Positions 3,161-19,828 of a stretch of DNA of 64,000 bases are shown here, one piece after another. Position numbers and translations under genes: made by a program. How positions within the stretch are numbered: the stretch's first letter is position 1; each line of letters opens with the position of its first letter. Origin of the DNA: Escherichia coli (lineage in GTDB: Bacteria > Pseudomonadota > Gammaproteobacteria > Enterobacterales > Enterobacteriaceae); assembly GCF_017348835.2 (NCBI RefSeq), contig NZ_CP071375.1. The stretch is one strand, 5' to 3'. The notes under the pieces were generated by a model. It was not told the origin of the DNA, searched no databases, and saw nothing but the letters and a program-made list of their open reading frames with translations.

Positions 3161-4697
3161 AATAGTCATTAAACCGAATACCTATTTTGATTCTGTCTCG
3201 CTGATGTCTATCTCCACGCGTGCAAATAAACTCGACGGCGTCGAGCAGGCATTTGTGGCGATGGCGACCGAAATGAACAAAGGTGTGCTGAAAAATTTAG
3301 GACTGCTGACGCCGGAGCTGGAACAGGCGAAAAACGGCGACCTGATGATTGTCATCAATGGTAAATCGGGTGCGGACAACGAGCAGTTGCTGGTGGAGAT
3401 TGAAGAACTGTTCAACACCAAAGCGCAAAGCGGCTCGCACGAGGCGCGTTACGCCACTATTGCCAGCGCCAAAAAGCATATCCCGGAAAGTAACCTGGCA
3501 GTGATTTCGGTCAACGGTCTGTTTGCCGCTCGCGAAGCGCGTCAGGCGCTGCAAAACGATCTTAACGTGATGCTGTTTTCCGATAACGTCTCGGTTGAAG
3601 ATGAACTGGCGCTCAAACAGTTGGCCCATGAAAAAGGGCTGCTGATGATGGGGCCGGACTGCGGCACGGCGATTATCAACGGCGCGGCGCTCTGCTTTGG
3701 TAACGCCGTGCGTCGCGGTAACATCGGTATTGTTGGCGCATCCGGCACCGGCAGCCAGGAGCTGAGCGTCCGCATTCATGAATTTGGCGGCGGCGTTTCG
3801 CAACTGATTGGCACCGGCGGGCGCGACCTGAGCGAGAAAATCGGCGGCCTGATGATGCTCGATGCCATCGGCATGCTGGAAAACGATCCGCAAACTGAAA
3901 TCATTGCGCTGATTTCAAAACCTCCCGCGCCTGCGGTGGCCCGTAAAGTGCTGGAACGCGCCCGCGCCTGCCGCAAGCCGGTGGTGGTCTGCTTCCTCGG
4001 TCGTGGCGAAACGCCGGTTGACGAGCAGGGGCTACAGTTTGCTCGCGGCAGCAAAGAAGCGGCGCTAAAAGCGGTGATGCTCTCCGGCGTGAAACAGGAA
4101 AATCTCGACCTGCATACGCTTAACCAGCCGTTGATTGCGGATGTGCGTGCGCGTCTGCAACCGCAGCAGAAATACATTCGTGGCCTGTTCTGCGGCGGCA
4201 CGTTGTGCGACGAAACCATGTTCGCGGTGATGGAAAAACATGGCGATGTCTACAGCAACATTCAGCCCGATCCGGAATTCCGCCTGAAAGATATCAACCG
4301 CAGCATCAAACACACCTTCCTCGACTTTGGCGATGACGACTTCACCAATGGCAAGCCGCATCCAATGATTGACCCCACCAACCGCATCAGTCGCTTGATC
4401 GAAGAGGCGCGCGATCCAGAAGTGGCGGTGATCGTGATGGATTTTGTGCTCGGATTTGGATCGCATGAAGATCCGGTCGGCTCCACCATCGAGGCGATCA
4501 AAGAAGCGAAAGCGATCGCCGCTGCCGAAGGACGCGAGTTGATCATTCTCGCCTATGTGCTGGGTACCGATCTTGATACGCCATCGTTAGAACAACAAAG
4601 CCAGATGCTGCTTGATGCCGGAGTGATTCTGGCGAGCAGCAGCACCAATACCGGATTGCTGGCGCGTGAATTTATCTGCAAAGGGGAGGAAGCCTGA
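3150..4697 (+). CDS. yahF: FdrA-like CoA-binding protein (succinyl-CoA synthetase alpha-like fold), 515 aa
   Basis: 515 aa; glycine-rich CoA-binding-like stretches (GIVGASGTGSQE); overlaps yahE end and abuts yahG start. Confidence 0.8.
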   Translation: MSVKIVIKPNTYFDSVSLMSISTRANKLDGVEQAFVAMATEMNKGVLKNLGLLTPELEQAKNGDLMIVINGKSGADNEQLLVEIEELFNTKAQSGSHEARYATIASAKKHIPESNLAVISVNGLFAAREARQALQNDLNVMLFSDNVSVEDELALKQLAHEKGLLMMGPDCGTAIINGAALCFGNAVRRGNIGIVGASGTGSQELSVRIHEFGGGVSQLIGTGGRDLSEKIGGLMMLDAIGMLENDPQTEIIALISKPPAPAVARKVLERARACRKPVVVCFLGRGETPVDEQGLQFARGSKEAALKAVMLSGVKQENLDLHTLNQPLIADVRARLQPQQKYIRGLFCGGTLCDETMFAVMEKHGDVYSNIQPDPEFRLKDINRSIKHTFLDFGDDDFTNGKPHPMIDPTNRISRLIEEARDPEVAVIVMDFVLGFGSHEDPVGSTIEAIKEAKAIAAAEGRELIILAYVLGTDLDTPSLEQQSQMLLDAGVILASSSTNTGLLAREFICKGEEA

Positions 4698-16377: not shown

Positions 16378-16603
16378 TTCAGAAAGGGTTCCACCTGCAA
16401 GTTGTTATTCCACCAGAGAGTGAATGGCAATGCAGGTAATCATTTCATCTGTATATCCGTATGCCAAATGGCATTCCACCGCCTTTTTCGCCGATATTTT
16501 GTTGTGATCGGCGACGCTTCGCTTAAAAAAGCACCAGCAGTGGTTTTGCAGCTATGCGGTGTATAAAAAATGATCTCATGCAGATGTTTTGTGAATGTGT
16601 GGG

Positions 16604-16632
16604 TTGACATTCATATGAAAAAAATCATAATT
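16604..16632 (+). promoter_or_regulatory. near-consensus sigma70 promoter (TTGACA, 16-17 bp spacer, CATAAT/ATAATT)
   Basis: gggTTGACAttcatatgaaaaaaatCATAATtcc read directly; about 160 nt upstream of the yahM start. Confidence 0.35.
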
Positions 16633-16789
16633 CCATCATGTTTGTGTGGGGTCTTTTCTGTATCTTACGCATCGCTCTCAAGCCTGACAGAAAATATGCT
16701 GTAAGGCTCATATCAAAAACCGCCATTAGCTCATCAGGAAGAGCAGACGACAACCAGGATTGTTGTATGGTACGGGGTTCGAGGCCTCG

Positions 16790-17035
16790 ATGGCGGTCCA
16801 ACTTTTCAAAACTCTTCTGAATCAGATCCCCTTATTATCATCCCTGCAAAGTGGAACATTGCCATTGTTTGGCTATTCAGGACGGGTCAGACCAATGAAA
16901 AAAGCCCACACAGGGGAGAGTGGGCTGAAATGGGAAGCTAAAGACTCAAGTAAACTTATCGGAAATAAGGACCACGCATTACGGGGGCTATCATCGCCGA
17001 TGGCCGGGATTCGGCAAATCAGGTTGATTACGTAG
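16790..17035 (+). CDS. yahM: small hypothetical protein (81 aa)
   Basis: ORF 16760..17035; the internal Met at 16790 gives 81 aa, the length I recall for yahM. Confidence 0.5.
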   Translation: MAVQLFKTLLNQIPLLSSLQSGTLPLFGYSGRVRPMKKAHTGESGLKWEAKDSSKLIGNKDHALRGLSSPMAGIRQIRLIT

Positions 17036-17051
17036 AGAGTAAATTATCTGC

Positions 17052-17722
17052 TCACCGCTGCGTCACCCCTTCGTAAATCAGGCGTAGCGCGAATACACCA
17101 ATAATTGCACCAATAACCCGACTGGCAACGCGTTGCATACGCCCATAAGCACGACGCACAGCGGGCAAAGAAAACGCCTGACTAAGAAAGACTCGCCAGA
17201 TAACTGATGCGAGCACAATCCCCGCCCAGGCCATTAAACGTGCCCATGTTGGTGTTTCGGCATTTAATGTTACTGAGAAAATACTGATAAAAAATAAAAC
17301 GGTTTGCGGGTTAGAGAGATCGGTAATTAATCCGCGGCGAAAAAAGACATACCAGGGGCGCTAATCGGTTGTTGTAGTGTGCTCATTTGCGGTGTTGACT
17401 GGCGGCGCATGCTACACCACGCAAACCATAAGAGATAAGCGCCGCCGACGATTCTGATAAGCGAAAAAATCTCCTCACACTGCGTAATTAGCGTTGCAAG
17501 ACCAAACAAACCCAACCCGGAATAAAATGCATCGCCCAGCGCCACGCCCAGTCCGGTCAGCACTCCTGCGCGTCGACCGGAAGCCAGGCTGGTTTGTACT
17601 ACCACAAAAAGATTGGCTCCCGGATTAAAAAAAGTAATCACGAACAGTCCTACGGTCAGGTAAACGGCGTGCAAAGGATCCATAGTGATTTCATCCATAA
17701 ATAAGTGAAGTAACTTCATCAT
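17052..17722 (-). pseudogene. yahN: LysE/RhtB-family amino-acid exporter, apparently disrupted by a -1 frameshift in a poly-T tract
   Basis: Two minus-strand ORFs (17327..17722 and 17052..17234) in different frames; combined span 671 nt versus 672 nt expected for 223 aa plus stop; frame break at a T-homopolymer near 17339-17345. Confidence 0.55.
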
Positions 17723-17868
17723 ATTTCTACCAAAAATAATCGGGTGCGAGAGAGATCACAAAGTGTCTTATTTCCGGTTACTGGCGTTTATGCCCTGACT
17801 GAACTAATTATTAATCAACCCAATAATGTGGGTGGGTGATAGTGTGATAACAACTCTGGAGCCGTAAT

Positions 17869-18144
17869 ATGAAAATAATCTCTAAAATGTTAGTCGGTGC
17901 GTTAGCGTTTGCCGTTACCAATGTCTATGCCGCTGAATTGATGACCAAAGCGGAATTTGAAAAAGTCGAATCGCAATATGAAAAAATAGGTGATATTTCA
18001 ACCAGCAATGAAATGTCGACCGCAGACGCGAAAGAAGATTTGATCAAAAAAGCGGATGAAAAAGGGGCTGATGTGTTGGTACTGACCTCCGGTCAAACTG
18101 ACAATAAGATCCACGGCACGGCAAATATTTATAAGAAGAAGTAA
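17869..18144 (+). CDS. yahO: small periplasmic DUF1471-family protein (91 aa) with signal peptide
   Basis: Signal peptide [21 protein letters not shown]; 91 aa. Confidence 0.85.
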
Positions 18145-18241
18145 TTCTGAATCCTATGTAAACATGCCCGATGCGTAAGTTTACTGGTGATCATCTATTG
18201 AAATTTATGCCGGATAAAGCGTTCGCGCTGCATTCGGCAGT

Positions 18242-19828
18242 TCAGCTTTTCAGCCGCCGCCAGAACGTCGTCCGACTGATGCCTAAATAATTCGCCGCTG
18301 CTGTTTTATCGCCTTTAAATTTCTCCAGTGCCTGTTGTGGTGTCAGTAAGCGTGGAGCGGGAATTTTCGCCGACTCGCGCGCCAGTTCCGGCAGTAGCAG
18401 CTGCAAAAACTGCGGCTTTAAATCCGGCGTCGGTTCCACACTTAAAAACAGCGCCAGTCGCTCCATCATATTGCGCAGTTCACGAATATTACCTGGCCAG
18501 TCGTAGCGCAGCAGCACGGTTTCACTTGCCTGTAACCCCTGGCGTAATGCAGCAGAAAATGGGGCGGAGAGCGCCGCCAGAGACACTTTCAAAAAGCTTT
18601 CCGCCAGTGGCAGAATATCTGCCACCCGCTCGCGCAGTGGTGGCAATTGCAGACGCAAAATACTCAGCCGATAAAACAGATCACGGCGAAACTGCCCTTG
18701 CCGCATATCTTCTTCCAGATTGCAGTGAGTGGCGCTAATGACCCGCACATCCACCGGAACAGGCTGATGCCCGCCGACGCGGGTGACCTCTTTTTCTTCC
18801 AGCACCCGCAGCAGCCGGGTCTGCAACGGCAGCGGCATTTCGCCAATCTCATCGAGAAACAGCGTGCCGCCGTGGGCGATTTCAAACAGCCCGGCGCGTC
18901 CTCCGCGTCGCGAGCCGGTAAACGCCCCTTCCTCATAGCCAAACAGCTCCGCTTCCAGCAGCGATTCGGCAATCGCCCCGCAGTTGACGGCAACAAACGG
19001 ATGCGACTTTTTGCCCTGTCGCGCATCGTGGCGGGCAAAGTATTCCCGATGAATTGCCTGGGCCGCCAGCTCTTTGCCCGTCCCCGTTTCCCCCTCAATC
19101 AACACCGCCGCACTGGAGCGGGCATACAGCAAAATAGTCTGCCGTACTTGTTCCATCTGTGGTGATTGACCGAGCATATCGCCCAGCACGTAACGAGTAC
19201 GCAGGGCGTTGCGGGTGGCATCGTGAGTGTTATGGCGTAACGACATGCGCGTCATATCCAGCGCATCGCTGAACGCCTGGCGCACGGTGGCGGCGGAATA
19301 GATAAAAATTCCGGTCATTCCGGCTTCTTCTGCCAGATCGGTAATCAGCCCCGCGCCGACCACCGCTTCGGTGCCGTTAGCTTTTAGCTCGTTAATCTGC
19401 CCGCGTGCGTCTTCTTCGGTAATGTAGCTACGTTGGTCGAGGCGCAAATTAAAGGTTTTTTGAAACGCCACCAGTGCCGGAATAGTTTCCTGATAAGTGA
19501 CAACGCCGATAGAAGAGGTGAGCTTTCCGGCTTTTGCCAGTGCCTGTAACACATCGTAGCCGCTCGGTTTAATCAAAATAACTGGCACTGACAGGCGGCT
19601 TTTCAGGTACGCGCCGTTAGAGCCAGCGGCGATGATGGCGTCGCAGCGTTCGTTTGCCAGTTTCTTGCGGATATAGGTCACTGCTTTTTCAAAGCCAAGC
19701 TGAATAGGGGTAATGTTCGCCAGGTGATCAAACTCGAGGCTGATATCGCGAAACAGCTCGAATAAGCGCGTTACAGATACCGTCCAGATAACCGGTTTGT
19801 CGTCATTCAGCCGTGGTGGATGTGCCAT
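18242..19828 (-). CDS. prpR: sigma54-dependent propionate catabolism activator (NtrC family)
   Basis: AAA+ sigma54-interaction motifs ([14 protein letters not shown]) and a C-terminal HTH; ORF 18242..19840 with the likely start [10 protein letters not shown] at 19828. Confidence 0.9.

Follow-up and report, generated by a model that had tools for sequence, protein, structure and literature searches.

The near-consensus promoter upstream of yahM in Escherichia coli is that of xtpA, a probably leaderless gene with a conserved tRNA-like element of phage ancestry

Leaderless mRNAs of Escherichia coli and its phages, for example that of lambda cI transcribed from PRM, start at the A of the AUG codon and have no Shine–Dalgarno sequence. 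In tmRNA (SsrA) a tRNA-like domain is built from the two ends of the molecule and is aminoacylated, and in the tyrT–tpr and thrU–tyrU–glyT–thrT–tufB operons canonical tRNAs located outside the ORF are co-transcribed with an mRNA. Cloverleaf mimics embedded in longer RNAs are represented by the mascRNA of MALAT1 and the 3′ tRNA-like structures of plant viruses. The E. coli gene xtpA resembles the lambda cI type in the geometry of its start, but the latter has no tRNA-like module. Like tmRNA and the tRNA–mRNA operons, xtpA joins a tRNA-shaped module and a translated frame in one transcript, albeit with a module that is non-canonical and lies inside the ORF. This element is embedded in the same way as mascRNA and the plant-virus structures, by analogy with which it could be a substrate of RNase P or of the CCA enzyme, although it is unrelated to them in sequence and host.

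We analysed a stretch of 64,000 nucleotides of E. coli DNA (hereafter the window), in which ORFs and megablast against complete E. coli genomes give the locus order yahK–yahL–yahM–yahN–yahO–prpR. The segment is found in 5172 of 5426 E. coli genomes (megablast), and over 801 nt the window and the pig isolate PE164 are 100% identical. The original prediction placed a strong promoter and a long untranslated leader upstream of yahM, in a region said to have no other annotated feature. This last statement is out of date, since the RefSeq record of MG1655 (NC_000913.3) annotates xtpA there (b4845, ‘putative transcriptional regulator XtpA’, 345252–345434), corresponding to the ORF at 16638–16820 of the window. 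The position is orthologous, between yahL and yahM/yahN with the same neighbours as in MG1655. The window comes from another strain and shows no sequence-level difference of note from K-12 xtpA: the promoter, the ATG and the tRNA-like element are identical, as are 60 of the 60 residues of XtpA, and the sole nucleotide difference from MG1655 within xtpA is a synonymous one (GCT/GCA). The window allele carries a rare synonymous T at 16676. The features of the locus are as follows.

16604–16609 (+), −35 hexamer TTGACA, from a consensus scan; the same in 128 of 128 collected copies
16626–16631 (+), −10 hexamer CATAAT, from a consensus scan; 16-nt spacer, no TG extension
16638–16640 (+), ATG whose A falls at the canonical +1, putatively both the transcription start and the start codon of a leaderless xtpA mRNA
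16638–16820 (+), xtpA ORF, 60 codons; product (60 aa) identical to that of MG1655 b4845
16643–16708 (+), two tentatively predicted hairpins between the ATG and the tRNA-like element
16720–16800 (+), tRNA-like element of 81 nt ending in U-CCA (ARAGORN), homologous to the phage argN slot
16790–17035 (+), yahM ORF of 81 aa, from the ORF list; shares 31 nt with xtpA, in a different frame

The xtpA transcript is described by Muto et al. (2022; J Biochem 171:459; PMID 35081614), in the title of their article, as a leaderless mRNA with a tRNA-like sequence, and the peptide that it encodes is reported there to regulate expression of the GcvB small RNA in K-12. The RegulonDB v12 paper lists XtpA among its newly added small proteins, citing Muto et al. 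The promoter pointed out in the window is the published xtpA promoter, and the supposed yahM leader is a known gene, not a new regulatory RNA: the 150 nt downstream of the promoter are open and begin with an ATG at +1. Since the promoter and what it drives have been published and annotated in MG1655, the remaining value of the locus is comparative.

TTGACA and CATAAT agree with the sigma-70 consensus at 11 of 12 positions and lie 16 nt apart (TTCATATGAAAAAAAT), as expected of hexamers close to TTGACA/TATAAT with a spacing of 16–18 nt; positions 16601–16643 of the window read gggTTGACAttcatatgaaaaaaatCATAATtccatcATGttt. These hexamers hold as first described, except that the second −10 proposed at the time, ATAATT with a 17-nt spacer, matches TATAAT at two of six positions and is superfluous. 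The announced distance of about 160 nt to yahM is also right, with 159 nt from the end of the −10 to the yahM ATG (16790). When both strands of the 64-kb window are scanned, this is the one site that reaches at least 11/12; the other four promoter-like sites between 15.5 and 18 kb attain 9/12, and the total of such sites in that interval equals the shuffle expectation. Under a first-order Markov null, 0.62 sites of at least 11/12 are expected per window [P(at least one) = 0.46], and about 0.002 on one strand of the 412-nt gap between yahL and yahM. GC content is low, 33–47%, over the whole stretch from yahL to yahM. Taken alone, the 11/12 match is no better than chance.

What lifts the site above chance is its conservation. 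Among 128 collected copies, all 128 have TTGACA as the −35, 126 have CATAAT as the −10 and 122 have a spacer of 16 nt. The sole variation of the −10 is the CATATT of the E. albertii type, and the spacer-length variants (6/128) arise in a run of A residues. In a few metagenome copies this A7 run (16617–16623) is lengthened to A8 or A9, so that the spacer measures 17 or 18 nt; the tract may be prone to slippage and thereby tune the strength of the promoter, or the variation may be sequencing error. In an alignment of 15 Escherichia sequences, eight of the 48 columns of the promoter block (16590–16637) vary, compared with 51 of the 70 columns just upstream (16520–16589; Fisher p = 2e-9). The claim of a genuine strong promoter is thus borne out by an 11/12 match conserved in 128 copies.

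A preprint on Reg-Seq reports an active yahM-proximal promoter that is repressed by IHF and whose start site was confirmed, with an offset of about +15; its text gives no coordinate. This promoter is likely to be that of xtpA. A search of 16540–16720 for the IHF site WATCAANNNNTTR with at most one mismatch gave none. Genomic SELEX peaks reported near yahM were considered as candidates for the xtpA promoter and set aside, since they fall inside yahL in older coordinates. Literature searches with xtpA, yahM, argN/ileZ/argO and coordinates returned no start-site table.

The A of the ATG (16638) is the seventh base after CATAAT, which is the canonical +1, and this ATG does not vary in any orthologue. 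With the start codon at the expected transcription start and no Shine–Dalgarno sequence, the geometry is that of a leaderless mRNA. RNA polymerase would start at or next to the A of this ATG, as indicated by the 7-nt distance and by the published title, and the first codon of the mRNA would then be the start of the 60-aa XtpA ORF. The transcript would bear, inside this ORF, the 81-nt tRNA-like module, descended from the argN slot, and would probably run on into the overlapping yahM frame. We infer such readthrough from the fact that no intrinsic terminator is predicted between 15500 and 18000 and from the overlap reported between yahM and yahN. The XtpA peptide would, according to Muto et al. 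(2022), regulate GcvB in K-12. We consider it very probable, taking all of the evidence together, that the hexamers are the sigma-70 promoter of xtpA and that the product is a leaderless mRNA with a tRNA-like module derived from phage argN.

Searches of Pfam and NCBIfam with XtpA returned no match. A 29-codon ORF (MKKIIIPSCLCGVFSVSYASLSSLTENML) at 16615–16704 (+) begins between the −35 and the −10 and, because of this position between the hexamers, cannot be expressed from the xtpA promoter.

The tRNA-like element corresponds to codons 28–54 of the xtpA ORF. It was detected by an ARAGORN run prompted by a match to a plasmid feature annotated ‘tRNA-OTHER’. The unconstrained minimum free energy (MFE) fold is a cloverleaf both for the element alone (−29 to −31 kcal/mol) and within a 203-nt transcript. 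Its acceptor stem is 7 bp long (CCGCCAU/AUGGCGG), the D and T arms are of standard form with the D loop AUCAGGAA and the T loop UUCGAGG, and the 3′ end is CCA. It therefore shows the 7-bp acceptor, the GG of the D arm, the UUCGA of the T loop and the CCA end of a tRNA cloverleaf. The anticodon arm is aberrant: 28 nt separate the D and T stems, compared with 22–23 nt in a canonical tRNA. Its MFE fold is a 7-bp stem with a 6-nt loop, and in the ARAGORN register the loop reads CAGGAUU, with A instead of U at position 33; a 5-bp anticodon stem with a 7-nt loop and U33 is thus not found in the element. Searched in 3.5 kb and in a 121-nt slice, the element is not scored by the Rfam tRNA model (RF00005, gathering threshold 29 bits) even at E ≤ 10, and in the same test phage argN scores 56.2 bits and the middle tRNA of TL-2011c 54.7 bits.

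Searching positions 16600–16820 against the Rfam 15 families gave chance-level matches only and no sRNA or cis-regulatory family. The earlier idea of a regulatory leader or small RNA was therefore right in that an RNA element is present, but this element is neither a riboswitch-type leader nor a classical sRNA and belongs to no Rfam family. Upstream of it, the two predicted hairpins (16643–16708) show one compensatory pair, several one-sided changes that preserve pairing and a covariation term of −0.78; as predicted structures they are weakly supported and we do not claim them.

Sequence comparison shows that the element derives from the middle (argN) slot of the ileZ–argN–argO array of lambdoid and Stx phages. 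In phage and plasmid records, Q and a methylase precede this array, and stx or lysis genes follow it. The element has in common with argN of phiP27, TL-2011c, mEp460 and PhiR49_2 the acceptor stem, both the D and the T arm, the CCA end and the 8 nt that precede the module; it is 76–85% identical to argN-slot tRNAs over about 82–92 nt, and its nearest relative in the slot is an 81-nt degenerate ‘tRNA-OTHER’ variant. It differs from argN in its non-canonical anticodon arm and in having its own sigma-70 promoter instead of lying inside a phage late operon. Unlike the array, it has no ileZ or argO remnants at its flanks, and its neighbours are yahK/yahL and yahN in every species. The homology with phage arrays is confined to about 16712–16801; the flanks (16638–16719 and 16801–16900), considered as decayed ileZ and argO, align with five phage arrays no better than shuffles do, and this candidate was rejected. 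xtpA is a clean example of a phage tRNA relic that came under a promoter of its own and, in one lineage, gained a frame that is translated. The middle-slot loci compared are the following.

L001, 4009–4089, middle slot of the array
L004, 2502–2582, middle slot of the array
L005, 1509–1585, middle slot of the array
L006, 409–488, middle slot of the array
L007, 412–488, middle slot of the array
L008, 402–479, middle slot of the array
L142, 1194–1271, middle slot of the array

From phage to phage, the anticodon arm of the middle slot changes while the acceptor, D and T arms are retained. The slot holds tRNA-Arg(UCG) in PhiR49_2, tRNA-Pro(UGG) in TL-2011c and tRNA-Gln(UUG) in Yersinia phages; in phiP27, mEp460 and the plasmid it is occupied by the 81-nt degenerate form. 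The plasmid copy, the sole one of the degenerate form that was scored, fails the tRNA model, as does the element of the window. This looks like swapping or decay of the anticodon arm within one tRNA lineage. The exact anticodon arm of the xtpA type was not found in viral contigs, and a pattern free of the arm gave one match in them, a 78-nt variant.

One human-gut metagenome contig, L084, was considered as a phage carrying an element of the xtpA type. It is collinear with a phage late region upstream and with positions 16712–19537 of the window downstream, so that at 3886–4049 a phage late region (methylase, ileZ) is joined to the chromosomal tRNA-like element–yahM–yahN–yahO–prpR. The junction sits exactly at the sequence common to the phage and chromosomal elements, and the contig (1.45× coverage) is a chimera of the assembly if it is not a genuine recombinant or prophage junction; the candidate was not retained. 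A 75-nt relative with the same acceptor, D and T arms occurs at L091:6263–6337 and L096:1182–1256, and also in L118 and L123, in another context that is apparently chromosomal (contigs of up to 210 kb). It is a tRNA-Arg(ACG) for ARAGORN, yet it stays under the Rfam tRNA threshold.

A cross-species pattern scan, with one genome per species and an exact 31-mer required, found the module in Escherichia only: in E. albertii (L009), Escherichia sp. E1V33 (L012), a divergent ‘E. coli’ (L011) and an E. coli-like MAG. All of these loci lie between yahK/yahL and yahN. In the comparison of 15 Escherichia sequences, which also took in nine divergent E. coli alleles, one of the 81 columns of the element (16720–16800) is variable, compared with 31 of the 82 columns between the ATG and its 5′ end (16638–16719; Fisher p = 6e-10) and 56 of the 81 columns downstream (16801–16881; p = 3e-22). 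Between K-12, E. albertii, L011 and L012, none of its 81 sites and none of its 27 third positions vary; with yahN of the same four as the benchmark, where 118 of 223 third-codon positions vary, such invariance has P ~ 1e-9. The sequence past the CCA diverges fast between species, unlike the promoter and the element.

The sole variant of the element is the O157 allele, a T-to-C change at 16787 that turns a G·U pair of the T stem into G-C. Of 5170 E. coli copies, 4821 have the window allele and 301 the O157 allele (5122 together), and 112 of 121 metagenome copies are identical. What is new here is that across Escherichia species the tRNA-like module shows the degree of conservation of a true tRNA gene, while the xtpA and yahM frames decay in some lineages.

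The xtpA frame was followed in 12 genomes and 120 metagenome contigs, exact alleles being counted elsewhere, and is not kept open across orthologues. Its length is 57 aa in some strains and 59–60 aa in the remaining ones; among metagenome copies, 104 of 111 have a frame of 57–60 aa and 6 of 111 are frameshifted. A 1-nt deletion reduces it to 21 aa in EC14, in 01_3327 and in the E. coli-like MAG, and this exact frameshift allele is present in at least 187 complete E. coli genomes. In such alleles, the N-terminus of XtpA joins the C-terminus of the 16615–16704 frame to give the 21-aa product. In E. albertii and L011 the frame is cut to three codons by a TAG at codon 4, a codon that is TGG in E. 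coli and AAG in E1V33. Parsimony favours TAG as the ancestral state of codon 4. The promoter and the element are intact wherever the frame is broken in this way (E. albertii, L011, EC14, 01_3327 and the at least 187 genomes). Over codons 1–27, pN/pS is 0.59–1.06 in frame and 0.47–1.25 in the off-frames, a comparison of low power with 27 codons. With the frame broken in several lineages and its pN/pS not below the off-frame values, the conservation of the unit cannot be due to the peptide alone. We infer that the constrained unit is the promoter together with the RNA element, and that the peptide, whatever its role in K-12, does not explain this constraint.

We may then wonder whether the selected product is the tRNA-like RNA itself, with XtpA a young, lineage-specific frame laid over it; the promoter is not in dispute between this reading and the one preferred above. 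The RNA could function within the transcript, as one of its structured parts, or as a tRNA-sized, CCA-ended RNA released by RNase P and 3′ trimming. Such a product would account for an element that varies at one of 81 sites amid a rapidly changing ORF and downstream sequence, without a single change in 27 third positions; for a lone variant, in the O157 allele, that replaces a wobble pair with a Watson–Crick pair; for two alleles that make up nearly all E. coli copies and an almost uniform set of metagenome copies; for the persistence of element and promoter where xtpA is broken; and for a predicted cloverleaf that is retained in the context of the transcript. Against it, the K-12 phenotype is attributed to the peptide in the report of Muto et al. 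(2022), and most E. coli copies do keep the 57–60 aa frame. Moreover, the element fails the tRNA covariance model and has no canonical anticodon loop, so that a decoding role is unlikely, and its very invariance leaves almost no covariation to support the structure.

On balance, we hold it to be a serious possibility, though one to which we give a little less than even credence, that since before the split between E. coli and E. albertii the selected unit has been a strong promoter with a domesticated argN-derived RNA acting as RNA. XtpA would then be a recent overprint, arising in the E. coli lineage through a change of codon 4 from TAG to TGG, and yahM would be incidental. The contrast between the RNA and the frames bears on how the XtpA/GcvB phenotype is to be read, as an effect of the peptide or as an effect of the RNA.

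The initial view, that the promoter serves yahM and that the intervening 150 nt are a long untranslated regulatory leader, has become improbable to a high degree. It is consistent with the lack of a predicted terminator between the promoter and yahM, and with the listing of yahM–yahN as a convergent transcriptional overlap in published RNA-seq data, in which yahM transcripts overlap yahN. The T loop contains a GAGG that precedes the yahM ATG by 5 nt (16780–16792) and would also fit structure-dependent or coupled translation: both motifs are base-paired in the predicted cloverleaf, so that yahM could be translated only once the structure is open, as might happen when ribosomes move along xtpA. 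However, this ‘leader’ opens with the ATG and the annotated ORF of xtpA, and what follows the CCA diverges quickly, unlike the promoter and the element. As a target, yahM itself is a poor candidate. Its ATG belongs to the 3′ strand of the acceptor stem in the tRNA-like element. Its frame is truncated to 11 aa in O157, 45 aa in ST131 and 49 aa in 2022H048/SCU-112, and E. albertii, L011 and L012 do not conserve it. RefSeq annotates yahM as frameshifted in several genomes (truncated or frameshifted at loci L013, L015, L016 and L020), 92 of 121 metagenome copies have the 81-aa form, and searches of Pfam and NCBIfam with YahM gave no match to any protein family. Most PGAP genomes nevertheless annotate yahM, the least conserved of the three, and almost none annotate xtpA or the tRNA-like element.

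Finally, that the hexamers are a functionless coincidence in AT-rich, horizontally acquired DNA is scarcely credible: about 0.6 such sites are expected per 64 kb on both strands, and the region has a GC content of 33–47% and, between 15.5 and 18 kb, no more promoter-like sites than expected, but this reading is effectively refuted by a −35 fixed in every copy and a −10 in nearly all, by a promoter block far less variable than the adjoining upstream DNA, and by published and preprint evidence that points to an active promoter here.

Some observations concern the neighbouring genes. yahL is absent from some E. coli, including an ST131 record (L020), and from Escherichia sp. E1V33. In five yahL-less E. 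coli matches (H20–H24), similarity to the window starts at about 16391; the low-GC yahL segment is thus polymorphic for its presence, and the conserved promoter module lies downstream of it. Searches of Pfam and NCBIfam with YahL gave sub-threshold matches only. On the other side of the locus, yahN (17052–17722, −) is split into two ORFs in the window, one G being missing near 17354 with respect to MG1655, which makes it either a strain-specific pseudogene or a sequencing error. In the gap between yahO and prpR, positions 18208–18266 (+) match the Rfam family naRNA4, a nucleoid-associated RNA derived from REP sequences, below threshold (26.9 bits, E = 0.06); this is probably a REP element.
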